Source: a virus. Taken from it: DNA of 64,000 nucleotides. Both the position numbers and the translations under genes were made by a program. Shown one piece after another: positions 2,639 through 59,064 of this stretch. Positions within the stretch are counted from its first letter, which is position 1. Every line of letters begins with the position of its first letter. The DNA lies in IMG/VR virus record IMGVR_UViG_3300045988_143938. One strand, given 5' to 3'. The notes under the pieces are model-generated. The model was not told where the DNA came from. It saw only the letters and a program-made list of their open reading frames with translations, and searched no databases.

Positions 2639-2817
2639 ATGCTTGCGAGTTTGACGCTACAATATAGTGGCTGCCACCCCCATAGGTATAGTTAATGCTA
2701 TATCTGCCTTTGGATAGGTTGAACAATGGGACAGGGCAGCCTTTTTCTTTGCCCTTCCGAAAAGCCGGATATGGGCAGGCTACCAGCCCTATAATGCCAA
2801 TAAAGTTCAATAAATCT

Positions 2818-3618
2818 ATGGCAGAAATTAACAATTTGGGAGAACTGCTCCCTATCAGTGAAAACAACGGGAAAAAAGCCGTTAACGCACGTTACTTACA
2901 TTCTTTTCTTGAAAGTAAACAAGAATTTGCTAATTGGATAAAAGGGCGTATTAATAAATACGACTTTGTAGAAGGAAAAGATTTTGAAACGCTCTATTTT
3001 GACTATCAAGGTAACTTATTGAATATCAGACATGATAATTTTATCAAGTCTGAAAATCAGCAAGTTAGCAAAATAGAATATGCACTATCTATCGGCATGG
3101 CAAAAGAGCTTTCAATGCTCGAGAATAATGAACGAGGCAAACAAGCCCGAAAATATTTTATAGCATGCGAGGAAAACAAGCGTGAACTTTCCCGTAAGGA
3201 ACTTCTTTTAATGGCTCTTCAAGCGGAAGAAGACAAGGAACGTTTAGCTTTGGAGAATGAAAAACAGCAGAAACAGATAGAAAGACTTAAACCTAAAGCT
3301 GATTTTGCTGAAAAAGCTTTTGCTATGGAAGGTAAGGTAGACATAGGCCAAGCCGCCAAAATTCTTAATCTTGGATATGGTAGAAACACCCTTTTCAAGA
3401 AGCTAAGGGAAGTTGGCGTATTCTTTGCAAATCGTAATGAACCTAAGCAGAAATACATTGATGCAGGCTACTTTGAAATGACAGAAAAGCCTATATCAAG
3501 AAAAAATCATCCTGGATTTATTGTAATGGTTGTGACATGTACTCAAAAGGGATTAGCATACATCAATCACCTGTTTGGCGGCAATCCCTCAGACGGGAAA
3601 TTAGCAAGAATAAGATAA
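2818..3618 (+). CDS. phage antirepressor, AntA-like N-domain plus KilAC/ANT C-domain
   Basis: KAVNARYLHSFLESKQEFANWIKGRINKYDFVEGKDF (AntA-like); KPKADFAEKAF..GKVDIGQAAKILNLGYGRNTLFKKLREVGVFF (KilAC-like). Track start 2695 lies in a structured leader; ATG 2794 also possible. Confidence 0.8.
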   Translation: MAEINNLGELLPISENNGKKAVNARYLHSFLESKQEFANWIKGRINKYDFVEGKDFETLYFDYQGNLLNIRHDNFIKSENQQVSKIEYALSIGMAKELSMLENNERGKQARKYFIACEENKRELSRKELLLMALQAEEDKERLALENEKQQKQIERLKPKADFAEKAFAMEGKVDIGQAAKILNLGYGRNTLFKKLREVGVFFANRNEPKQKYIDAGYFEMTEKPISRKNHPGFIVMVVTCTQKGLAYINHLFGGNPSDGKLARIR

Positions 3619-20850: not shown

Positions 20851-21672
20851 CTATTTTATAGGCGAAATCTTTCTGTCAGAAGGTTTCCCACCGAACAACT
20901 GATTGATATAAGCAAGTCCTTTGGGCTTACAAAGTACCTTTTGATATAATATGTCGGGGTGGCTGTCTCTGTGTATAGGCGGTAACAGCGTCATTTCAAA
21001 ATACCCGGCGTCAATGTACTTTTGTTTCGGTTCGTTCCTGTCTTTAAAGAATACGCCCACTTCCTTTAGCTTTTTAAAAAGGGTGTTTCTCCCGAAACCG
21101 AGGTTGAGAATCTTTGCGGCTTGGCCTATGTCTACTTTGCCCTCTGCTTTGAAAGCGGCTTCGGCAAAGTCGGCTTTGGGTTTTAGTTTGGCGTTCTTCT
21201 CTTCAAGCTGCTTCTTTTCTTGTTCTAATCTCGCCTTTTCCTCACGCTCATTTTTTAACTGTGTGGCAAGGCTGATAACAAGATCGGGGTTGTTTATCAT
21301 CTGCTCCAAAGTTGGCTGCGTGGCGGTCATGCCGTATTGGAGAAGCTCTTTGATGCGGTCATTGCACCATAAATAAAAGTCAGGAGAAAGCCATTGAGCG
21401 AAGATTAATGCCAAATCCTCATGTAACCATGTACCTTGATTGTTACCTCCTTGATTTACAGTAACTAAACCCGTTGCGGGAATTCCCGTTTTGGCTGATA
21501 ATGAGCTAATTAACTCATTTGTCTGTTTTGTTGACAAAAAGTCATTACAGCGTTTTCCAAACGGTTTGGCCATTTCGGTGGCGTTCACCATTACACTATC
21601 GCCTTTCTGAAAGGTAATAGGACTTCCATTGTATTGGAAGATTTGATTTTCATTCAAGTGTCGCATAAACAA
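20851..21672 (-). CDS. phage antirepressor, KilA-N N-domain plus KilAC/ANT C-domain
   Basis: GTWLHEDLALIFAQWLSPDFYLWCNDRI (KilA-N-like); KPKADFAEAAF..GKVDIGQAAKILNLGFGRNTLFKKLKEVGVFF. Confidence 0.8.
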   Translation of the reverse strand: MFMRHLNENQIFQYNGSPITFQKGDSVMVNATEMAKPFGKRCNDFLSTKQTNELISSLSAKTGIPATGLVTVNQGGNNQGTWLHEDLALIFAQWLSPDFYLWCNDRIKELLQYGMTATQPTLEQMINNPDLVISLATQLKNEREEKARLEQEKKQLEEKNAKLKPKADFAEAAFKAEGKVDIGQAAKILNLGFGRNTLFKKLKEVGVFFKDRNEPKQKYIDAGYFEMTLLPPIHRDSHPDILYQKVLCKPKGLAYINQLFGGKPSDRKISPIK

Positions 21673-22246: not shown

Positions 22247-22460
22247 TGGGTTGCACAAAATCCTTTAGGCTGGCGTTCATCTTCTTAATGGCTGCCAGTC
22301 TTTTGTCTATTTCTTCTTCTTGCTCTAATCCGTTATCTGCTCTCCACAGCTCTAAATCCGCAACTTCTGCTATAAGCATTTCAAGCTGAACAATAAACTC
22401 GTTACAATTCCTGTGTAATTGCAATTCCTTTCGTTCTCTTTTACTTATCTCATCTTTCAT
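22164..22460 (-). CDS. hypothetical coiled-coil protein
   Basis: ORF track, 98 aa; 3' end overlaps 21947-22246 by 83 nt. Confidence 0.5.
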   Translation of the reverse strand: MKDEISKRERKELQLHRNCNEFIVQLEMLIAEVADLELWRADNGLEQEEEIDKRLAAIKKMNASLKDFVQPIRDCDVFLSRRGLLSNKQDQSLNYRLR

Positions 22461-22499
22461 AATTATTTCATGTATTTTCTATATTTTTGTGCAAATATA

Positions 22500-22513
22500 T
22501 AGAAAATAGGTGA
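22500..22513 (+). promoter_or_regulatory. TAGAAAATAGRTGA motif copy 2
   Basis: tagaaaataggtga directly abutting minus-strand -7 box (22492-22499). Confidence 0.5.
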
Positions 22514-22657
22514 TTTTCTCAAGCGATGCGGATAATAAAAGGGTGGATGTGTTTTATAACATACAATAGTTGTTACAATAAATCATAAATAAAATAATAT
22601 TTATCAATATAAAGTTGTTAACTTTGCCGCACATTAATTAACAAAAACAAATGCTTT

Positions 22658-36004: not shown

Positions 36005-36018
36005 TAGAAAATAGATGA
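36005..36018 (+). promoter_or_regulatory. TAGAAAATAGRTGA motif copy 4
   Basis: tagaaaatagatga, 7 nt upstream of plus-strand -7 box. Confidence 0.5.
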
Positions 36019-36025
36019 AAAATCG

Positions 36026-36033
36026 TATATTTG
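36026..36033 (+). promoter_or_regulatory. -7 box TATATTTG
   Basis: Upstream of the terminase leader. Confidence 0.45.
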
Positions 36034-36063
36034 CACTATATATTACTCATAGAGCTGTGAATC

Positions 36064-36110
36064 AAGCCGGAGTATGCAAAATCATATTGCATGCGACGGC
36101 TTATTTTTTT
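36064..36110 (+). terminator. leader hairpin plus T7 immediately before terL ATG
   Basis: AAGCCG...CGGCTT outer stem, ATGCAA/TTGCAT inner stem, then ATTTTTTT. Confidence 0.4.
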
Positions 36111-38801
36111 ATGGAATACGACGGAATTGTACATACAAAAAATGGAGAGGGCGTATTTACTTATGCGCACATGGAAAAGCTGCGTGAATATGGAAATCCG
36201 CTTAATATAATCGCCCAAAAAGGATGTCAAGAAAAGTTCCTTGCGTCTCCGGCAGATATTACTATATTTGGAGGAAACCGTGGTGGCGGAAAGGCGCTGA
36301 TATTCAATGAATTAGTGTGTACTCCGTTCGGATTTAGAAAAATCCAAGACATTAAAGCCGGCGACATAATCACTGGCCTTGACGGAGGAATGCAAAGGGT
36401 TGTTTACAACTCCTATCAGGGATTTAAAGAGTGTGTAAGACTTAAATTCGTTGACGGCTCTTATGCTGACTGCTGCATAGATCACTTATGGAATATCAAG
36501 CAATCTAACCATTGTTCAAAGAAAAGGGCTTTATATAACCTCCCCTTAGAGGATGAATGGCGGGTGTGGACTACTCAAATGATTATAGACCACATGGAAA
36601 AGCAGAAGGGGAAGAAGCAGCCGCGCCATTTATCTGTTCCGTTGTGCAAGCCAGTTCGATTCACCAAAGGGAAATACTTCAAGCCTAAATTCAGTCCGTA
36701 TCTGATTGGTGCGCTCATCGGGGACGGATGTATTGCCGATAGTGTAATCAGTAAAAACTGCTGTTATTTATTTAATCCTGACGAGGAAGTCATTGGCGAG
36801 TTCAAGAAATCAGTAGGGTATTCTTCTTGCGAGTTTGAGAAAGGCTGCTACCGCATGCGCATCAACGACAAAGAGCTTATCGCAGAGATTCAGAAATTGA
36901 ATATAACAGGGCGTGCGGCAGATAAACACGTTCCTGACATGTATTTATATGGGTCGCTGGAGGAAAGATGGGCGCTTGTTCAGGGCTTAATGGATACCGA
37001 CGGAACTATTGATGAAAGAGGGCACCTGTCTTATACTACAATAAGCAAACAGCTTGCGGAAGATGTAAAATTCCTTATCAACAGTTTGGGAGGATTGGCG
37101 ACGATTGGCAGAGGCACCGCGGGGTATAGAAATAGCAATGGAAAATTTATCCAATGTAATGACGCATACACTCTTTATATAAGAATCCCGGATGCCGAAA
37201 GGATGTTTCGCGTAAAAAGGAAAAAGGAAAGATGCAAACCTTATAATGGCGGAATAAGCATCAATGCGAGAAGAATTATAGGCTACGATATGATAGGGAA
37301 GAAGGAGTGTTGCTGTATTGCAGTAACCAATCCGGATAGTTTGTTTCTGACAAGGGATTTTATTGTCACCCATAATTCTTGGGCCTTGCTAATGGAGGTC
37401 TTGAAAGATATAAATAACCCGAATTTTGCTTCTGTAATCCTGAGAAACGAAAAAGAGGACTTGAGTAATATAGTAAACAAGTCTTATGAACTTTTCTCTC
37501 AATACGGAAAGTACAACCGCTCTATCTCGGACATGACTTGGAACTTCTATAACGGAGGTTTTTTAAAGTTTTCCTATTATGCGGATTCTTACGAAGACTT
37601 CGTAAAGCGTTTTCAGGGAAAAGAGTTTGCCTTTATCGGTATAGACGAAATCACTCACTCTGATTACCTGAAGTTCAAATACCTTATTACCAACAACCGT
37701 AATGCCTACGGTATAAGAAACCGTTTTTATGGCACATGTAACCCTGACCCGGATAGCTGGGTACGTAAATTCATAGACTGGTGGATTGATGAAAACGGTA
37801 ACCCTATTCCGGAGCGAGACGGGGTAATACGCTATTGCTTCATGGATGGCGACCGACCGGAAGATATTTACTGGGGGGATTCCGTAGACGAAGTTTATAA
37901 CCAATGCAGGCATATCATAGATCCGTTGCTTACGCCGGGTCTTATCAGTAAGGGTTACGACAAGTCGGCATTCGTGAAGACAGTCACATTCATAAAGGGA
38001 AAGCTTGAAGAGAACGTTGCTCTTATATCTTCCGACCCTAATTATTTAGCCAACCTGGCCCAGCAGGACGAAGAATCTCGCGCAAGGGACTTGGAAGGGA
38101 ACTGGAACTTTAAAGCTGCCGGGGATGATATTATCAAGATGGAACACATGGAGCGCTTCTTTAAAAATACCGCCCAATACGGAGACGAGAAGCGTAGGGT
38201 ATCATGCGATATTGCATACGAGGGAGGAGACAACCTTGTCTTGTGGCTGTGGATCGGGAACCATATCGAAGATGTATATGTGAGTAGGGATAATTCCAAG
38301 CGGACGGAAGAGTGTGTTGCCCATAAACTTAGAGAGTGGGGCGTGCTGGAAAAGGATTTTGTTTTTGACTTAAACGGCCCCGGCCAGGATTTTAAAGGGA
38401 AATTCCCCGATGCGGTCAGGTTTAATAATATGGCTGCTCCAATACCCGCGACAAAAGCGGATGAGAAATCAATCAAGTATGTGTACTCCTCTTTAAAATC
38501 ACAGTGTGCGGATATTCTTGTAAAAAAGATAAAGAACGAGGAGATATCCATAAATCCCGATTTGTTATCGCGCAAATTCTCCGGTAACGGATATTCCGGA
38601 GTAACCCTTTATAATATTCTTATGAAAGAGAGAAAGGCTATTCGGGACGCGGAAACAGACAAAGGGTTTGCCTTGATTAAAAAGGAAACTATGAAAAAAT
38701 ACGTCGGGCACTCTCCTGACTTTATAGAAGCGATGATTTACAGACAAATTTTTGATATAAAAAAACATAACACAAAACCAAAAGGATTATGGAGATTATA
38801 A
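36111..38801 (+). CDS. terL: terminase large subunit, interrupted by intein
   Basis: Walker A GGNRGGGK|S split by insert; Walker B FAFIGIDEITH. Track start 36015 lies upstream of the predicted -7 box, so ATG 36111 is preferred. Confidence 0.9.
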   Translation: MEYDGIVHTKNGEGVFTYAHMEKLREYGNPLNIIAQKGCQEKFLASPADITIFGGNRGGGKALIFNELVCTPFGFRKIQDIKAGDIITGLDGGMQRVVYNSYQGFKECVRLKFVDGSYADCCIDHLWNIKQSNHCSKKRALYNLPLEDEWRVWTTQMIIDHMEKQKGKKQPRHLSVPLCKPVRFTKGKYFKPKFSPYLIGALIGDGCIADSVISKNCCYLFNPDEEVIGEFKKSVGYSSCEFEKGCYRMRINDKELIAEIQKLNITGRAADKHVPDMYLYGSLEERWALVQGLMDTDGTIDERGHLSYTTISKQLAEDVKFLINSLGGLATIGRGTAGYRNSNGKFIQCNDAYTLYIRIPDAERMFRVKRKKERCKPYNGGISINARRIIGYDMIGKKECCCIAVTNPDSLFLTRDFIVTHNSWALLMEVLKDINNPNFASVILRNEKEDLSNIVNKSYELFSQYGKYNRSISDMTWNFYNGGFLKFSYYADSYEDFVKRFQGKEFAFIGIDEITHSDYLKFKYLITNNRNAYGIRNRFYGTCNPDPDSWVRKFIDWWIDENGNPIPERDGVIRYCFMDGDRPEDIYWGDSVDEVYNQCRHIIDPLLTPGLISKGYDKSAFVKTVTFIKGKLEENVALISSDPNYLANLAQQDEESRARDLEGNWNFKAAGDDIIKMEHMERFFKNTAQYGDEKRRVSCDIAYEGGDNLVLWLWIGNHIEDVYVSRDNSKRTEECVAHKLREWGVLEKDFVFDLNGPGQDFKGKFPDAVRFNNMAAPIPATKADEKSIKYVYSSLKSQCADILVKKIKNEEISINPDLLSRKFSGNGYSGVTLYNILMKERKAIRDAETDKGFALIKKETMKKYVGHSPDFIEAMIYRQIFDIKKHNTKPKGLWRL
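36294..37376 (+). mobile_element. 361-aa intein with LAGLIDADG homing endonuclease, class 3 hallmarks
   Basis: Starts Ala after GGGK, ends IVTHN|S; DHLW (block B Trp), ECCCIAV (block F Cys), THN (block G Thr); LIGALIGDG and LVQGLMDTDG motifs. Confidence 0.8.
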
Positions 38802-46426: not shown

Positions 46427-46567
46427 ATGTATTTAGGCTTTATACTTTGGGCGATAATTTTAGTTGTGATCGTGTGGAATACTAACCCGGCACTAGTTAT
46501 TATATCCGTAGTGATAGGGGTTGTGTTTGCGATTGCAAAAACAACAGATAATAAACCAAAAGAATGA
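46427..46567 (+). CDS. 46-aa two-TM peptide (below ORF-track cutoff)
   Basis: AAGGAGG 8 nt upstream; MYLGFILWAIILVVIVWNTNPALVIISVVIGVVFAIAKTTDNKPKE. Confidence 0.4.
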   Translation: MYLGFILWAIILVVIVWNTNPALVIISVVIGVVFAIAKTTDNKPKE

Positions 46568-46568
46568 C

Positions 46569-47411
46569 ATGGAAACATTGAAGGACGTTTTTTTGAAAAA
46601 ATACCCGCAATACGGAAAGGTGCTGCGGGTATATGAAGAGGTTAACGAAACGGAGTGCACCTTCGAGAGTATTACAAAACCAAGGTTGTACAACTTCGTT
46701 CAGGCTCTTAATGACAGGCTGGCAACAAACAGTGCTAAAACCTATTGCGCTATGTTTAAATCGGTTCTTAACCTGTACAGCGATATGTATTCTTTCCCGA
46801 AAGGCTTTGAAGCTATATTAACCCTGAAGAAGGACGCAACGCAAAGTACATGGTTAACGGATGAAGAAATTAAAAAACTACTCTCATACGATCCGGCTAA
46901 TGATACAGAACGGACAGTGAAAAACTGTTTTCTTCTCGGTTGTCTGACAGGTGCAAGACATTCGGACTACGTATGTTTTACAGAGGACAATATAATAGAC
47001 GGACGACTGGTCTATATTTCCCAAAAAACAAAAACGAAAGCGGAGATTCCAGCGGCTCCGGCTGTGTTACGGATATTAGAGGAAAACAAAAAGTACAACC
47101 TTAGCCAGCGGAAACTGTCTGATGTGACATTTAATGATACGATAAGAAGTATATGCCGGAAGTGTGGAATAAACCAACGAATAAAACTGTATCAGGCGGG
47201 CGAATATGCAACAGGGGAAAAGTGGGAGTTTATTTCCTCGCATTCAGCGCGGAAGTCTTGCGCAACCAACTTATATTTAAGGGGAGCGGATCTGTATTCT
47301 ATCAGCCGGATGTTAGGACACTCCAGTGTAACCATGACGGAAACGTATATTTGTTGCGGGCTGCGTGAATTGTCAGATAAGATAATAGGATATTTCAACG
47401 GGTTTAAATAA
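46569..47411 (+). CDS. tyrosine recombinase (second, short form)
   Basis: GARHSDY...HSARKSCATNL...LGHSSVTMTETY catalytic R-H-R-Y pattern. Confidence 0.85.
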   Translation: METLKDVFLKKYPQYGKVLRVYEEVNETECTFESITKPRLYNFVQALNDRLATNSAKTYCAMFKSVLNLYSDMYSFPKGFEAILTLKKDATQSTWLTDEEIKKLLSYDPANDTERTVKNCFLLGCLTGARHSDYVCFTEDNIIDGRLVYISQKTKTKAEIPAAPAVLRILEENKKYNLSQRKLSDVTFNDTIRSICRKCGINQRIKLYQAGEYATGEKWEFISSHSARKSCATNLYLRGADLYSISRMLGHSSVTMTETYICCGLRELSDKIIGYFNGFK

Positions 47412-48007: not shown

Positions 48008-49141
48008 TTACAATTTACTGTCCATCTTTTCAAATTCTTCTTGTACGGACTTGTTTAGCACTTTGGCGTAGATCTGTGTAGTTTTTATATCCGTATGTCC
48101 CATCATTTTTGCAAGGTTTTCAATCGAAACTCCCATATTCAATGCCATAACCGCAAAACTATGCCGGGCCATGTGCGAATGTAGGTTTTGTTTTATCCTC
48201 GCGAGCTCCTGAACGACTTTCAGTCTTAAATTATACTGATAGTTGCTTATTACGGGCAGTTTGAAATCGTATTTTTGCAGAATTTCCATTGCGGGCTTAA
48301 GAAGCATCAGGAAATACTCTTCTTCCGTTTTTACTCTTACGTCTCTTATAAAGAATTTGTTCCCTTTCTTGATTACACCGCTAAAATCAAAGTTGAACAA
48401 ATCTGCATAAGACAAACCCGTAAAACATTGGAATACGAACAAGTCTCTAACCCGTTCAATGCTCTCGGATGCCGTTTTTAAGCCTTGTATTTGCTTTATC
48501 TGTTCTAAGGTGAGGTATTTTATACCTTCGCTCTTTCCGCGCTCAAATTTGAGCTTATTATACGGGTTGTCTTTCAGCAAATCATATTTGATGGCTTCGT
48601 TTATATATCTTTTCAGGCGCTTATGATAACCATGTATTGTCGTCTGCTTGTTGTACTTCCCATGAAGGAAATTGTCATAGTGCATTATGTTAGCCGTAGT
48701 AACGTCCGTAAAGTAAACGATCCGACCGAACTCTTTCAGGGATGTTATTAAGGAGGCATGCGTATTTAACGTTCCTTGCCTGAGGTCGGTTCTTTCGCCC
48801 ACTCTCCGTTTTATAAAATCTATAAAGCTTTCTTTTGTTTGGGAATACTTTAAAAAGTGTTCCAGCTTATCAAAACTGAAAGGTTCTTTGTTTTTTACCA
48901 ACCCGTTTATGAACTCGTTGATGTTCCGCATTTGCGTATCAAGCCTTTCGTTGAGGTCTAAAGATTGAACGGTATTCTTAACCTTTGTTTTTTCGCTCCA
49001 TTGGTCGGAATACAACCGAACGCCTGTACTTAACCATTTTCTTTTCCGTTCAAACAAAATTTCTATTTGAACGGTTCCTTTCGTTGTCTTGCTTGCCGTA
49101 TGTTTACGGTCAAAAACAAACCTTAATACTGGATACTTCAT
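48008..49141 (-). CDS. int: phage integrase (tyrosine recombinase)
   Basis: 377 aa; HMARHSFAVMAL...MGHTDIKTTQIYAKV; N-terminal arm-binding/SAM-like region. Confidence 0.9.
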   Translation of the reverse strand: MKYPVLRFVFDRKHTASKTTKGTVQIEILFERKRKWLSTGVRLYSDQWSEKTKVKNTVQSLDLNERLDTQMRNINEFINGLVKNKEPFSFDKLEHFLKYSQTKESFIDFIKRRVGERTDLRQGTLNTHASLITSLKEFGRIVYFTDVTTANIMHYDNFLHGKYNKQTTIHGYHKRLKRYINEAIKYDLLKDNPYNKLKFERGKSEGIKYLTLEQIKQIQGLKTASESIERVRDLFVFQCFTGLSYADLFNFDFSGVIKKGNKFFIRDVRVKTEEEYFLMLLKPAMEILQKYDFKLPVISNYQYNLRLKVVQELARIKQNLHSHMARHSFAVMALNMGVSIENLAKMMGHTDIKTTQIYAKVLNKSVQEEFEKMDSKL

Positions 49142-49258: not shown

Positions 49259-49468
49259 TCATTGATTATTACGTAAAACGCTGATAATAAACAAAAAGGG
49301 ACTACGTTTTTGTAATCCCTTGCTGTGATCCGCAAGAAATGTGCAAACTTTAGTATCTTTAAATAATTTATACGACAAAGGGTCTATTTCATTTTTGTCA
49401 ATATAATCTCCATTTATCATTCTTTTTAAGAGAATTTCCGTATTACTGTATTTTTCATAGTTTTCCAT
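49259..49468 (-). CDS. hypothetical 69-aa protein
   Basis: Internal ATG (MENYEKY...) preferred; the upstream part of the track ORF is low-complexity. Confidence 0.4.
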   Translation of the reverse strand: MENYEKYSNTEILLKRMINGDYIDKNEIDPLSYKLFKDTKVCTFLADHSKGLQKRSPFLFIISVLRNNQ

Positions 49469-49679
49469 ACTCTTAAAATTCAAATAGTTACATAAAATAT
49501 GTTTTATAACATATAGAATAGTGTGCAAATAATACAAAATATATACTATCTTTGCATTGTTGTTAGAACGATAGAACGACAGCAACAATACATAAAAAAC
49601 AGAAGCAGCTATAAAAACCGCTTATTAGTATTTGTTGATGGCAAAAATAACAATTTTCTAAATAAAATCAAATAAAACA

Positions 49680-50155: not shown

Positions 50156-50388
50156 GAAGCTTCAATTTGAATAAAATCACAAGTCTTGGACTGCGAATAG
50201 CATTGATTATGGTTGTTATGGCAGGATGTGTATATGGTGGCCGCGTAGAGTATAATGATGATGTATTATCCGGTATAAGCTCTGAAAAATACGACTTTAT
50301 CAGCAGCAGGATAAGCGATAATTCAAGATCGGCAGTCGTAAATGAATACATGAAAAACAAACGGTACTACGACAGTATTGAATTTTAA
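50152..50388 (+). CDS. hypothetical protein
   Basis: ORF track, ATGA overlap with xis-like gene. Confidence 0.5.
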   Translation: MRSFNLNKITSLGLRIALIMVVMAGCVYGGRVEYNDDVLSGISSEKYDFISSRISDNSRSAVVNEYMKNKRYYDSIEF

Positions 50389-50414
50389 AAACCGCGTTGT
50401 GTGAATAACGCTCC

Positions 50415-50527
50415 TTCCTCTTAGCTCAACGGTTAGAGCATCGCTAAGGTTATTTGTTCGTAAGGGTTTAGCGTTTCCGGTCTGTTCCGGTTAGCGATTG
50501 TTGCACGTTCGATTCGTGCAGAGGAAG
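50415..50527 (+). ncRNA. tRNA-like gene with 43-47 nt insertion in place of the anticodon loop
   Basis: Acceptor TTCCTCT/AGAGGAA; D arm GCTC-AACGGTTA-GAGC; T arm GCACG-TTCGATT-CGTGC; anticodon-type stem TCGCT(AA)/(TT)AGCGA enclosing 50446-50492. Confidence 0.6.
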
Positions 50528-50905
50528 CAAGATACACCGTTCTTTGACGTATTGAATGTGAAACAAAGTTTGAATATCTGATATTCGGATTTGTTTCAAT
50601 ATAACTAAGGATTACGTATAGCGGAAACGCCGAAACTACGTATAGGCTTGGTTATCGTGATTGTTTCTCGCACCGAAATGTCCTACGGTAGAGAAGTATG
50701 CGGTTTGGGCGCCCGTATCGCGAGAAACAACAGGTCATAAAGACAATATAAGCGTCCGATACAGTCTTAAATCGGTATAAAGTATGCGGTGGTAATGAAA
50801 GGCGGCCGTACACGCTTATTATATATATTCTCGTGGCTCACCATAAGGCGAGTGGTAAGGCTTAACATCGGAACGCTCACGAGAACAATTACTAATCACT
50901 AATTT
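50528..50905 (+). ncRNA. ORF-free region of consecutive long hairpins (candidate large structured RNA)
   Basis: Stems 50559-67/50590-98; 50613-18/50637-42 with GCG-GAAA-CGC cap; 50661-71/50720-30; 50748-55/50812-19; 50828-35/50878-85. Confidence 0.45.
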
Positions 50906-50920
50906 AAAATCAAAATTATT

Positions 50921-51313
50921 ATGAAGAATTATTTTATAGCAGCTATTATCGGGGTTGTTGTGTTAGTGGGAATTTTTGCAGTTATTCCTTATTATAATGT
51001 ATGGCAACAAGAAATGTCCGGTAAGGCGGAATTTGCAAAAGCAGAGCAGAACCGCAAGATAAAAATTGAAGAAGCGAAAGCTAATCTTGAGGCTGAAAAA
51101 TTAAACGCTCAAGCAGAAATAGAGCGAGCCAAAGGAGCCGCGGAAGCAATAAAGATAGAGAACGGAAGCATTACTCCTGCTTATATTCAATATCTATGGG
51201 TAAGGCAGCAAAGTAACTTAAATGATAAAACTGTCATCTATATTCCGACAGAAACTAATCTTCCAATTTTAGAAGCATCCAGACAATATGGAAAATCGAC
51301 AAGTAGTATTTGA
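50921..51313 (+). CDS. membrane-anchored SPFH/band-7-like protein (tentative)
   Basis: N-terminal TM then Ala/Glu/Lys-rich helix; resemblance to prohibitin-type proteins is weak. Confidence 0.4.
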   Translation: MKNYFIAAIIGVVVLVGIFAVIPYYNVWQQEMSGKAEFAKAEQNRKIKIEEAKANLEAEKLNAQAEIERAKGAAEAIKIENGSITPAYIQYLWVRQQSNLNDKTVIYIPTETNLPILEASRQYGKSTSSI

Positions 51314-51943: not shown

Positions 51944-52016
51944 ATATTTGTTTAGGTTGCCGGGCGGTCTGAGAAGATAGTCCGGTTTTTAGTTGGAAAT
52001 CATCAATAACAATTAT

Positions 52017-53033
52017 ATGAAAACATTTGAAGAATTAAAAGAAGAACTATTGAACCGGGCAAAAAACGCAAATGCCTGCCAAAACGGTTACAAAATGGGA
52101 CTTGATGCTAAAAATAAGGCTGATCTATTAAAAGCCATCACCGCTAACTGGTTTTGGGTATTAATAGATGCAAGGATAGTTGATGCAATATATCTCGAAG
52201 AAAATTTTACTGAGGAAGAACTTTCGGAAGCTGGTATCTATACACGAAAATGCCATGAGGTAAGAGCTGTGTCTTTTGCCTGCGGCAGTGCAACGGTGAA
52301 AGCCTGCGGCAGTGCAACGGTGAAAGCCTGCGACAGTGCAACGGTGAGAGCCTGCGGCAGTGCAACGGTGGAAGCCTGCGACAGTGCAACGGTGAGAGCC
52401 TGCGGCAGTGCAACGGTGGAAGCCTACGACAGTGCAACGGTGAGAGCCTACGGCAGTGCAACGGTGGAAGCCTACGGCAGTGCAACGGTGAGAGCCTACG
52501 GCAGTGCAACGGTGGAAGCCTACGGCAGTGCAACGGTGGAAGCCTACGACAGTGCAACGGTGAGAGCCTACGGCAGTGCAACGGTGGAAGCCTACGGCAG
52601 TGCAACGGTGGAAGCCTACGGCAGTGCAACGGTGAAAGCCTGCGACAGTGCAACGGTGAGAGCCTGCGGCAGTGCAACGGTGGAAGCCTACGACAGTGCA
52701 ACGGTGGAAGCCTACGGCAGTGCAACGGTGGAAGCCTACGGCAGTGCAACGGTGAAAGCCTGCGACAGTGCAACGGTGAGAGCCTACGGCAGTGCAACGG
52801 TGGAAGCCTACGACAGTGCAACGGTGAGAGCCTACGGCAGTGCAACGGTGAAAGCCTGCGACAGTGCAACGGTGAGAGCCTACGGCAGTGCAACGGTGAG
52901 AGCCTGCGACGAATCCTATGTAGAAGACTGTACGGGTAATATTAGACCGAGATATGATTACGCAATAGTCAAAGATTACCATAACCATAAGATATATATC
53001 AGAAAAGGAAAATTTGAGATAATAGAGGTTTGA
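52017..53033 (+). CDS. octapeptide-repeat (beta-solenoid-like) protein
   Basis: Helical N-domain then 26 copies of (C/Y)(G/D)SATV(K/R/E)A. Confidence 0.75.
   Translation: MKTFEELKEELLNRAKNANACQNGYKMGLDAKNKADLLKAITANWFWVLIDARIVDAIYLEENFTEEELSEAGIYTRKCHEVRAVSFACGSATVKACGSATVKACDSATVRACGSATVEACDSATVRACGSATVEAYDSATVRAYGSATVEAYGSATVRAYGSATVEAYGSATVEAYDSATVRAYGSATVEAYGSATVEAYGSATVKACDSATVRACGSATVEAYDSATVEAYGSATVEAYGSATVKACDSATVRAYGSATVEAYDSATVRAYGSATVKACDSATVRAYGSATVRACDESYVEDCTGNIRPRYDYAIVKDYHNHKIYIRKGKFEIIEV
52278..52901 (+). repeat. 26 x 24-nt perfect-register tandem repeat (coding)
   Basis: GCC T[G/A]C G[G/A]C AGT GCA ACG GTG [A/G][A/G]A; all other positions invariant. Confidence 0.95.
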
Positions 53034-57107: not shown

Positions 57108-57941
57108 ATGAACACTTCAATTATTAAATTCGATTACAACGGAAATCAAATTCCTTTTGAAAAAGGAGATGATGTAATGGTAAACCTTACAGCTATGGCA
57201 AAAGCCTATCCTGATAAGAATTTATCCACAATTGTTAACTCGCAGGAAATCAGTGATTATTGCGCATCACTTTCCAAACTAAAAAATTTTAGTTTGGCTG
57301 ATTTACTGATAGTTAAGAGAGGCGGAGATAATCCTGGTACTTGGGCTCACCGTCTTGTCGCTATTCGTGTTGCACAAAAACTAAATTCCGATTTAGCGGT
57401 GTGGGTGGATATGAGAGTAGATGAGCTTCTTAAATACGGTATGACCGCCACGCAGCCAACTTTGGAGCAGATGATAAACAACCCCGATCTTGTTATCAGC
57501 CTTGCCACGCAGTTAAAGAGCGAACGCGAGGAGAAACAAAGGATAGAGACGGAGAACTTGTATCTAAAAGAACAGAACGAAGCTCAACGCCCAGCTGTAA
57601 TATTTACAGAAAGCGTAAAGGTAAGTAGTACGAACATACTTATTGAAGACCTCGCAAAACTCATTACTCAGAACGGATATAAAATCGGAGAAATCAGATT
57701 GTACAATTGGTTTGTGGATAATGGGTATTTGGTACGGCACAAGAGATGGAGCAATTCAAGAAGGAAATACGAGAACTATTACACCCCAACACAGAGGGCT
57801 GCGGAAATGAAGCTGTTTTGGGTATCAGAAAGGGTTATTTCAAATCCGGGTCAACCACAGTTTACAAGATTTACATGTTATGTAACCGGAGAGGGACAGG
57901 TATATTTCATTAATAAATTCAATAAATTAAAAGTTGCATAA
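57108..57941 (+). CDS. phage antirepressor, KilA-N N-domain plus distinct ANT-type C-domain
   Basis: GTWAHRLVAIRVAQKLNSDLAVWV (KilA-N-like); linker YGMTATQPTLEQMINNPDLVISLATQLK identical to 20851-21672. Confidence 0.75.
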   Translation: MNTSIIKFDYNGNQIPFEKGDDVMVNLTAMAKAYPDKNLSTIVNSQEISDYCASLSKLKNFSLADLLIVKRGGDNPGTWAHRLVAIRVAQKLNSDLAVWVDMRVDELLKYGMTATQPTLEQMINNPDLVISLATQLKSEREEKQRIETENLYLKEQNEAQRPAVIFTESVKVSSTNILIEDLAKLITQNGYKIGEIRLYNWFVDNGYLVRHKRWSNSRRKYENYYTPTQRAAEMKLFWVSERVISNPGQPQFTRFTCYVTGEGQVYFINKFNKLKVA

Positions 57942-58767: not shown

Positions 58768-58905
58768 ACCAAAAGCCCTCTACTGATGTAGAAGTTCTGT
58801 GAAAGGTTCAGGTTAAGATTTAATCAGCTAACAAATTAACTATCCCGGTGTGGTTTGACCGCCTATCCGGGAACAAGGGCCTGTGAAGATTGGGCAGGTG
58901 AATAT

Positions 58906-59049
58906 GGAGAAGTGGTGTAATTGGTAGGCACGCCGTGGGTAGCGCGGTGAGTGTAATAGAAATAGGAAGTTGGTGCTTTTCCACCTTAGCAGTCATGCTA
59001 TAGTAACAAGCCGAATAAACTCGTCCCGGTTCGAGCCCGGGCTTCTCCT
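58906..59049 (+). ncRNA. tRNA-like gene with ~77 nt insertion at the variable-arm position
   Basis: Acceptor GGAGAAG/CTTCTCC; D arm GTGT-AATTGGTAG-GCAC; hairpin CCGTG-GGTAG-CGCGG; T arm CCCGG-TTCGAGC-CCGGG. Confidence 0.55.
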
Positions 59050-59064
59050 CTAAATATATTTACC

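Follow-up and report, generated by a model that had tools for sequence, protein, structure and literature searches.

The element described here lies in the IMG/VR virus record IMGVR_UViG_3300045988_143938, a 64,000-nucleotide stretch of viral DNA which was analysed over its whole length and is referred to as the window throughout. Between positions ~50389 and ~50888 its + strand carries a conserved, non-coding, modular RNA fold of ~500 nt with discrete ends, which is a composite of three separable units, namely a tRNA mimic, a cassette made up of the modules H1-H4, and a 3' hairpin, H5, and these units reassort freely. We lean, with moderate confidence, towards the reading that the tRNA mimic and H5 punctuate an early polycistronic transcript and so free a stable, modular RNA. 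The first-pass annotation of this DNA had drawn attention to consecutive stems and a repeated 11-mer downstream of a tRNA-like gene; every one of these stems and both copies of the 11-mer are present where it had placed them, and they are given below together with the other features on which the argument rests.

50394-50411 (+): leader hairpin GCGTT-GTGTGAAT-AACGC, 3 nt 5' of the tRNA mimic.
50415-50527 (+): tRNA-Arg(CCG)-derived mimic, called at 50415-50528 by ARAGORN in intron mode.
50447-50484 (+): insertion of 38 nt in the anticodon arm of the mimic, at position 32/33, from ARAGORN intron mode.
50541-50550 (+): 5' strand of the long-range helix P1, the box GTTCTTTGAC, paired with 50732-50743 by RNAalifold.
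50559-50598 (+): H1, an 18-bp hairpin with three double compensatory pairs and six pairs with one-sided changes of the G·U type.
50559-67 / 50590-98 (+): outer stem of H1, TGAAACAAA / TTTGTTTCA, read in the sequence.
50572-77 / 50581-86 (+): inner stem of H1, GAATAT / ATATTC, read in the sequence.
50601-50655 (+): H2, a two-tier hairpin with a GCG-GAAA-CGC GNRA tip and one compensatory pair (GC<->UA).
50613-18 / 50637-42 (+): TACGTA stem, read in the sequence, which encloses GCGGAAACGC at 50621-30.
50661-50730 (+): H3, a three-way-junction module with an AAGTATG junction and a G-rich P3 loop.
50661-71 / 50720-30 (+): closing stem of H3, TTGTTTCTCGC / GCGAGAAACAA, read in the sequence.
50694-704 and 50780-90 (+): the two copies of the repeated 11-mer AAGTATGCGGT.
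50732-50743 (+): 3' strand of P1, AGGTCATAAAGA, from RNAalifold.
50748-50819 (+): H4, a second three-way-junction module and paralogue of H3, found in cassettes A, A' and C.
50748-55 / 50812-19 (+): closing stem of H4, ATAAGCGT / ACGCTTAT, read in the sequence.
50820-50827 (+): A/U-rich linker TATATATA.
50828-50885 (+): H5, a branched hairpin of ~60 nt, which ends 35 nt before the ATG at 50921.
50828-35 / 50878-85 (+): closing stem of H5, TTCTCGTG / CACGAGAA, read in the sequence.

Conservation of the fold was assessed in an alignment of 45 distinct sequences of the window's cassette type (A), for which a consensus structure was computed with RNAalifold and compared with controls in which the 3' partners were slid by 1-3 columns. 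The consensus comprises 86 pairs in 11 helices, and 99.7% of the pair cells are kept, compared with 33-46% when the partners are slid. Double compensatory changes occur in five pairs (three in H1, one in H2 and one in H3) against 0-1 in the controls, the remaining pair changes lead mostly to G·U, and the covariation score of 0.099 compares with 0.011-0.038. The helices hold 355 G·U cells and only 7 A·C cells, which identifies the + strand as the folded one; pairing drops to 90.7% when the alignment is read on the - strand, and the T loop, the D loop and the GAAA tetraloop read correctly on the + strand only. In addition, the + strand of the region folds with a minimum free energy of -106.3 kcal/mol (z = -2.88 against dinucleotide shuffles, with 1 of 100 shuffles as good), whereas the fold of the - strand is unremarkable (z = -1.55, 8 of 100). 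The proposal of a structured element acting at the RNA level, for which the first-pass annotation had looked to stem conservation and covariation among homologues, is thus supported on the + strand by covariation, by the G·U asymmetry and by the GNRA loop.

The locus is non-coding. No open reading frame (ORF) longer than 53 aa overlaps positions 50389-50920, and none of 25 aa or more keeps its frame, position or length across the 45 homologues, in which single-base indels occur within the longest candidate ORFs; the earlier remark that no credible ORF is present therefore holds. The module was found in more than 150 human-gut viral and metagenomic contigs, from which 98 distinct full-length elements were gathered, and the T arm of the mimic was matched exactly in 21 contigs of IMG/VR and in at least 120 contigs from metagenomes, nearly all of them of human-gut origin. 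Aligned elements are 95-99% identical from ~50389 to ~50888, and outside these borders both flanks switch among unrelated alternatives. Two gene families are found upstream, either a helix-turn-helix (HTH) protein ending in ..ERFIE(R/K)NRVV or a small lipoprotein, compared with at least 15 families downstream, which indicates that the role of the element is generic and not gene-specific; a riboswitch or leader devoted to one constant downstream family is not what these flanks suggest. The gene of a 130-aa protein downstream was considered as a partner and dismissed, because the element is present in only 3 of 80 loci encoding that protein. A blastn search of the element against GenBank phages returned no match, and a megablast search of 24 kb against GenBank matched a single short fragment. 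The literature searched, including the papers on the phage LoVEphage, does not describe the element. It may already be contained, unnamed, in a catalogue of ~10,000 candidate phage RNAs (PMC10690425), for instance as its 'tRNA-Arg' candidate.

The cassette forms a domain of ~290 nt in which the long-range helix P1 closes H1-H3. Cassettes from different phages are largely non-homologous and fall into types A (that of the window, with clades A1 and A2), A', B, C and a LoVEphage type; the P1 box GTTCTTTGAC is retained in cassette C and in LoVEphage. Changes in the outer stem of H2 lead to G·U only, and the closing stem of H3 shows one compensatory pair, CG<->UA. A homologue of H3 forms the last module of cassette B, with a closing stem that differs wholly yet stays complementary. 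The 'duplicated structural modules' suspected from the repeated 11-mer are accordingly real, as H3 and H4, which share AAGTATGCGGT, are paralogous three-way junctions with a third homologue in cassette B. The long-range helix that RNAalifold proposes for cassette B conflicts with the local three-way junction implied by this homology. By eye only, a possible loop-loop pairing was noticed between 50675-50684 and 50705-50713 in H3 and between 50761-50771 and 50791-50806 in H4, which seems to covary between the paralogues (GUCC/GGGC in H3, GUCU/AGGC in H4). Besides, the interior of H1 (50568-50589) is exactly inverted in place in four contigs (L097, L101, L185 and L215), where GTTTGAATATCTGATATTCGGA becomes TCCGAATATCAGATATTCAAAC; this is a DNA-level event, by which three G·U pairs turn into A·C mismatches on the + strand. 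Two other interpretations were discarded, namely H3 and H4 as tRNA-like structures, since no cloverleaf appears in their folds, and a hammerhead-like reading of 'CGAAAC..GATGAG' in cassette B, as inspection places the core strands in the wrong order.

At least 13 combinations of tRNA allele, cassette and 3' hairpin were encountered, which implies that recombination exchanges the units and that they do not evolve together as a single fold. The 'large structured ncRNA' of the first-pass annotation is therefore upheld as a structured RNA element but not as a monolithic one, given that mimic, cassette and H5 reassort independently. Large ornate RNAs such as ROOL and GOLLD are, in phages, often near tRNA genes, and the present element resembles them in being phage-borne, multi-helix and adjacent to a tRNA-type element. 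ROOL and GOLLD are reported to be ornate bacterial RNAs of large size that assemble into homo-oligomeric complexes (PMC12286853), and a member or analogue of this group, assembling into an RNA-only cage, is the least probable of the explanations that we considered. An Rfam cmscan of the whole window at gathering scores gave 0 matches, with ROOL, GOLLD, raiA, HEARO and OLE all unmatched, and a scan of 50300-51000 at E <= 10 returned three chance-level matches only (NsiR4, PK1-TEV and MIR7996), so that the caution with which membership of ROOL or GOLLD had been treated was right. The domain, at ~290 nt, is also much smaller than these RNAs and replaceable by unrelated cassettes, and units that reassort argue against one large co-folded particle.

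The conserved module begins with the leader hairpin, conservation setting in at ~50389; the hairpin is kept in the mimic alleles t1 and t2, whose upstream sequences differ. The adjoining tRNA mimic possesses a 7-bp acceptor stem, a D arm, a T arm with the canonical TTCGATT loop and the discriminator G50527, and CCA is not encoded (G-CAAG). The stems and the consensus of T and D loops are thus those of a tRNA, whereas a 7-nt anticodon loop and detection by standard means are lacking: default ARAGORN finds 0 tRNA genes in the whole window, and the Rfam tRNA model has no match either in the whole window at gathering score or in 50300-51000 at E <= 10. The 'tRNA-like gene' reported upstream of the stems is hence real but aberrant, being called only in ARAGORN intron mode (Arg CCG, with the 38-nt insert), and its physical coupling to the structured region was confirmed. 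Three alleles, t1-t3, keep the cloverleaf while acceptor pair 2-71 varies as UA/UG/CG and anticodon-stem pair 31-39 as UA<->CG; the T arm with its TTCGA loop and the loop TTCCGGT (50485-50491) are invariant. In other alleles the insertion measures 34-43 nt, and it has conserved motifs of its own, GGTTAYT.GTTCG, GTTTAG and a second TCCGG adjoining the loop TTCCGGT. Transfer-messenger RNA (tmRNA) was excluded as an identity, since neither default ARAGORN nor Rfam matched and acceptor pair 3-70 is C-G; a 'permuted tmRNA' was called only at a relaxed ARAGORN threshold. A group I intron was likewise excluded, because an insert of 34-43 nt falls far below the ~200 nt or more of group I tRNA introns and no Rfam intron model matched.

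Could the mimic be a functional tRNA-Arg(CCG) of the phage that is interrupted by a short intron of a new kind, with the hairpins as a mere 3' trailer or spacer? We regard this as improbable. Deletion of the 38-nt insert does yield a sequence that default ARAGORN calls as a normal tRNA-Arg, the TTCCGGT loop is invariant across alleles, and related tRNA-Arg genes with the same T arm are present in metagenomes (L161 and L238). Nevertheless, the known bacterial tRNA introns are group I introns, and we know of no mechanism by which bacteria remove a 34-43-nt insertion at tRNA position 32/33. Bacterial ArgRS uses A20, whereas position 20 of the mimic is U or C; moreover, the motifs of the insert are themselves conserved and the downstream hairpins are under structural selection of their own. 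A functionless, decaying remnant, such as a degenerate tRNA cluster or a recombination scar, would account for the aberrant tRNA-like unit and for modules of about tRNA size (70-72 nt), and phage tRNA clusters are common, LoVEphage having nine tRNA genes (PMC8525569). Decay is, however, very improbable in view of the 95-99% identity within clades, with almost no pair-breaking and several compensatory changes, of an arrangement that persists across phages whose portal proteins are 51% identical, and of the failure of H3 and H4 to fold as cloverleaves.

The window contains a second aberrant tRNA-like module, which occupies a different intergenic gap of the same + strand gene array at 58906-59050 (+) and is again called in ARAGORN intron mode only. 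It has an acceptor GGAGAAG/CTTCTCC and normal D and T arms, ~75 nt replace the anticodon/variable region, a hairpin at ~58876-58895 precedes it, and no Rfam family matches it. This module is a portable unit, which is present in 17 IMG/VR contigs and whose neighbouring sequence varies on either side. Its existence indicates that these phages repeatedly place tRNA-shaped units of aberrant form between cistrons; as in tRNA punctuation, the units at 50415-50527 and 58906-59050 both lie in intergenic gaps and on the coding strand.

The first-pass annotation had also offered DNA-level alternatives, namely attP arms or a packaging or replication site. The 22- and 27-nt patterns of the T arm and acceptor gave 0 matches in 185,579 species genomes, which shows that the mimic is not a copy of a host attB tRNA, and integrated relatives directly adjoin the host gene proS (prolyl-tRNA synthetase), with a junction that, in L174 and L086, the two contigs checked, is ~4.9-7 kb away from the element. 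The element was therefore rejected as attP, and both of its sides consist of phage DNA. A DNA-level site of any of these kinds, or a single-strand initiation signal, is in our estimation highly improbable. It would suit an element that lies between lysogeny and early modules 1.3 kb from an integrase, holds an A/T-rich run and many inverted repeats, shows cassette mosaicism and has the interior of H1 inverted in place in four contigs. The strand-asymmetric G·U pairing is not expected of it, nor are tRNA T and D loops and a GNRA loop, which are meaningful as RNA only; three ORFs separate the integrase gene from the element, the terminase (36015) and primase-helicase (42137) genes are distant, and there are no iterons, the 11-mer occurring twice in cassette A and once in B. 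An origin assignment by GC skew was abandoned, because the skew tracks gene orientation only.

Contigs adjacent to proS comprise L174 (3112-4716), L086, L125, L165, L181, L244 and L261, with ECF sigma/FecR genes beyond proS, which points to an attachment site adjoining proS in Bacteroidaceae; proS itself is absent from the window. L174 has no integrase between the junction and the element, and a HEPN/nucleotidyltransferase pair was seen near its prophage end. A homology break common to many loci maps to window positions 49328-49333, upstream of the integrase gene at 48008-49141 (-), and is likely the attP region or a recombination hotspot. At the same position L099 carries 3.5 kb of extra DNA.

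H5 lies at the other end of the module, whose boundary at ~50888 falls just past it. Its motif runs CCCGTGG, a variable inner hairpin, GTAAGGC..CATCGGAACGC and CACGGGAAC; the closing stem covaries (CG<->UA) and the inner hairpin does so strongly (CG<->UA and UA<->AU<->GC). The alleles h1, h1b and h1c were distinguished, unrelated hairpins (h2 and h3) substitute for H5 in other phages, and an A/U-rich run is found 5' of every H5-class hairpin. The window holds a single copy, and no Rfam family matches H5. Its conserved string was matched in at least 120 viral stretches, and many of the matches listed have no tRNA mimic or cassette within 650 nt upstream. Such stand-alone copies follow the stop codon of another early gene and an A/U-rich run, and end 20-35 nt before the next ATG; three examples are the following.

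L103:459-532 (-): stand-alone H5.
L104:4024-4097 (+): stand-alone H5.
L109:5199-5272 (+): stand-alone H5.

Homologous hairpins are thus repeated between cistrons, in the manner of the T7 RNase III sites, and H5, which had been counted as part of a single large RNA, is instead a recurrent, stand-alone intercistronic hairpin. It was not retained as an intrinsic terminator, because H5 and its alleles lead into mixed sequence with no U run. From a consensus scan of the region for terminators, nothing emerged beyond a weak site within H4 and the leader hairpin as read on the - strand. An antisense transcript was weighed as well, in that a - strand -7 box, TAATTTTG, at 50918-50911 and the terminator-like leader hairpin (50411-50394, followed by TTTTT) bracket the element. 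It was rejected because the box is not itself conserved and lies outside the conserved module, such a box is expected about once per 1.9 kb by chance and pairing is worse on the - strand, and we judge the bracketing coincidental.

The phage is a temperate, siphovirus-type phage of Bacteroides/Phocaeicola and a distant relative of LoVEphage. Relatives were found by protein only, the portal being 51% and the integrase 56% identical to those of LoVEphage, BI-TP1 and Phocaeicola PV4-TP1. Near the element, the + strand has a single Bacteroides-type -7 box (TAnnTTTG), at 49547, ahead of the genes for a 68-aa protein, the HTH protein and the lipoprotein, and no further + strand -7 box occurs between 49555 and 54936, so that the element probably lies within a polycistronic early transcript. 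LoVEphage itself (MW660583.1, ~22254-22637, equivalent to L278:1974-2357 on the - strand) has a homologous gene-free stretch of 384 nt between an HTH gene and genes for a hypothetical protein, an exonuclease and RecT. This stretch contains the box GTTCTTTGAC and a cassette of its own, which includes an AAAGTA-hairpin module; an A/U-rich linker and an H5-like hairpin that bears CATCGGAACGC are present as well. The stretch folds with z = -2.25, and at its 5' end a plain G+C-rich hairpin replaces the tRNA mimic. GenBank annotates here two tiny ORFs on the opposite strand ('No HHsearch hits'), which are probably spurious.

According to the reading that we favour, the locus would be transcribed as part of a polycistronic early RNA, and host tRNA-end enzymes would recognise the tRNA mimic, with RNase P acting at the 5' end and either RNase Z or RNase E at the 3' end. 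An endonuclease would cut the A/U-rich linker, and H5 would remain on the downstream mRNA as a protective 5' structure. This punctuation would release a stable RNA of ~300 nt, which may act as a protein-binding scaffold or decoy with its specificity set by the cassette carried, and in LoVEphage the plain hairpin would assume the punctuating role of the mimic.

The main rival explanation, which we hold to be possible though unlikely, is a cis-acting leader of the delayed-early genes that serves anti-termination, mRNA stability or translation of the next cistron. The position of the element suits such a leader well: it always follows conserved regulatory genes (HTH with or without the lipoprotein) and precedes highly variable early genes, it lies on the operon strand with no promoter motif of its own, H5-class hairpins always stand 20-35 nt before a start codon, and LoVEphage keeps the arrangement without a tRNA mimic. 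HK022 put and lambda nut are likewise cis RNA elements located after the immediate-early and before the delayed-early genes. However, put RNAs are conserved structures of ~70 nt with two hairpins, whereas the present element, at 290-500 nt, is 4-7 times larger, far exceeds known put or nut elements, and has an exchangeable core. There is little homology among cassettes A, B, C and the LoVEphage type, which would be unexpected for docking on a conserved polymerase or ribosome; downstream intrinsic terminators to be overridden were not identified, no systematic search having been made; and a tRNA-shaped unit suggests cleavage and not persistence in cis. The diversity of the cassettes, their reassortment and their location next to a hypervariable early region, at its border, are more in keeping with a role in specificity or an arms race than with docking on conserved machinery.

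Quite tentatively, we speculate that the element is an RNA-level specificity locus of LoVEphage-like phages, in which the mimic or hairpin and H5 would frame an exchangeable cassette that is cut out and acts in trans. The cassette might then serve as decoy or scaffold to a protein of the host or of the phage, such as a defence nuclease or a tRNA-targeting enzyme, or it might be an RNA immunity determinant, and the expanded anticodon arm, in which the UCCGG motif is duplicated, could itself act as bait for an anticodon nuclease. If this were true, the swapping of cassettes would parallel, at the RNA level, the shuffling known from protein anti-defence islands. An antisense immunity RNA of the c4 (phage P1) or CI (phage P4) type was considered and rejected, since complementarity within the window is at chance level and no Rfam C4 match exists; the host was not searched. 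The c4 RNAs of phages P1 and P7 and the CI RNA of P4, which are cut from a longer transcript by RNase P, are comparable as phage regulatory RNAs between lysogeny and early genes whose allelic variants could set specificity. They differ in being antisense RNAs of 77-79 nt with target sites in the same phage, and the present window has none above chance.

Several points weigh against a punctuated, trans-acting RNA. The covariation signal derives mostly from a single deep split, that between clades A1 and A2, and thus represents few independent events; the nine pairs of P1 are invariant in the 45 sequences, so that covariation speaks neither for nor against this helix; and cassette B is too conserved for covariation, with 0 compensatory pairs. 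As LoVEphage does without the tRNA mimic, punctuation by RNase P and RNase Z cannot be essential to the action of the cassette. Pfam and PHROG scans of 49 ORFs revealed no Ro60, RNA ligase, reverse transcriptase, RNase or RNA-binding protein, and complementarity to targets in the 64-kb window reaches 12-13 nt at best, with chance-level E-values. Co-transcription is read solely from the strand and the positions of promoter motifs, and we infer both the processing and the action in trans.

The locus belongs to none of the classes tested, that is, canonical tRNA, tmRNA, group I intron, ROOL/GOLLD/raiA/HEARO, terminator, gene-specific riboswitch, c4/CI and attP. By analogy, its closest likeness appears to be with tRNA-punctuated stable RNAs (T4 RNAs C and D, TMERs and mascRNA) and, for H5, with the early RNase III sites of T7. 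The T4 stable RNAs C and D (species 1 and 2) are likewise phage-encoded, non-coding and structured, of a function that is not known, and stand in line with tRNA-shaped units, and their ends are made by host tRNA-processing enzymes. They measure ~120-140 nt and lie among working tRNA genes, whereas the present locus has a non-canonical tRNA unit, ~290 nt or more and exchangeable cassettes, and its processing is only proposed. In the MHV68 TMERs and in MALAT1-mascRNA, a tRNA-like fold is fused directly to hairpin RNAs, and the neighbouring RNA owes its ends to tRNA-end enzymes; these systems are, however, eukaryotic (Pol III or nuclear RNase P/Z), differ in order and products, and have no sequence relationship with the element. 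The T7 early RNase III hairpins resemble H5 as conserved, irregular, intercistronic hairpins of ~60 nt just 5' of start codons. H5 differs from them in being branched and in carrying a conserved single-stranded string of 20 nt, there is no sequence similarity, and its cleavage is a prediction only.

The remaining genes of the window include those for a terminase, a portal, a capsid, a D5-like primase-helicase (42137), an HTH_17 protein and a YqaJ exonuclease. Within the large terminase (36015-38801, +, 928 aa) a LAGLIDADG_3 domain occupies residues 320-373, before Terminase_6N, which suggests an intein or an inserted homing endonuclease. Two tyrosine recombinase genes stand side by side, at 46521-47411 (+) and 48008-49141 (-), as they do in LoVEphage, where the pair is annotated as integrase and integrase next to ParA. 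Three genes of antirepressor type (KilA-N/ANT or AntA/ANT) are located at 2695-3618, 20851-21672 and 57108-57941. An ORF of 346 aa at 51993-53033 (+) consists of ~25 tandem 8-residue repeats, GSATV(E/K/R)A(Y/C), alternating with DSATV variants, and has weak Pfam matches to the C-terminal beta-helix of T4 gp5; the repeat also gives rise to artefactual ORFs on the opposite strand of 51993-53033.

Among the temperate phages of the human gut, LoVEphage and its relatives rank with the most prevalent, LoVEphage having been detected in ~8% of 1,241 viromes in one study (PMC12629997), and they all seem to keep a gene-free locus of 400-500 nt at the start of their early genes. The tRNA mimic with an expanded anticodon arm is new, as is H5, a recurrent intercistronic RNA motif with good covariation, and the cassettes provide a rare example of structured RNAs that reassort like protein-coding accessory ('moron') genes. 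Inducible cultured lysogens of related phages exist, which makes the function of the element directly testable. Should host defence or lysogeny control prove to be what the cassette acts on, the specificity between Bacteroides phages and their hosts would gain a further layer at the RNA level.

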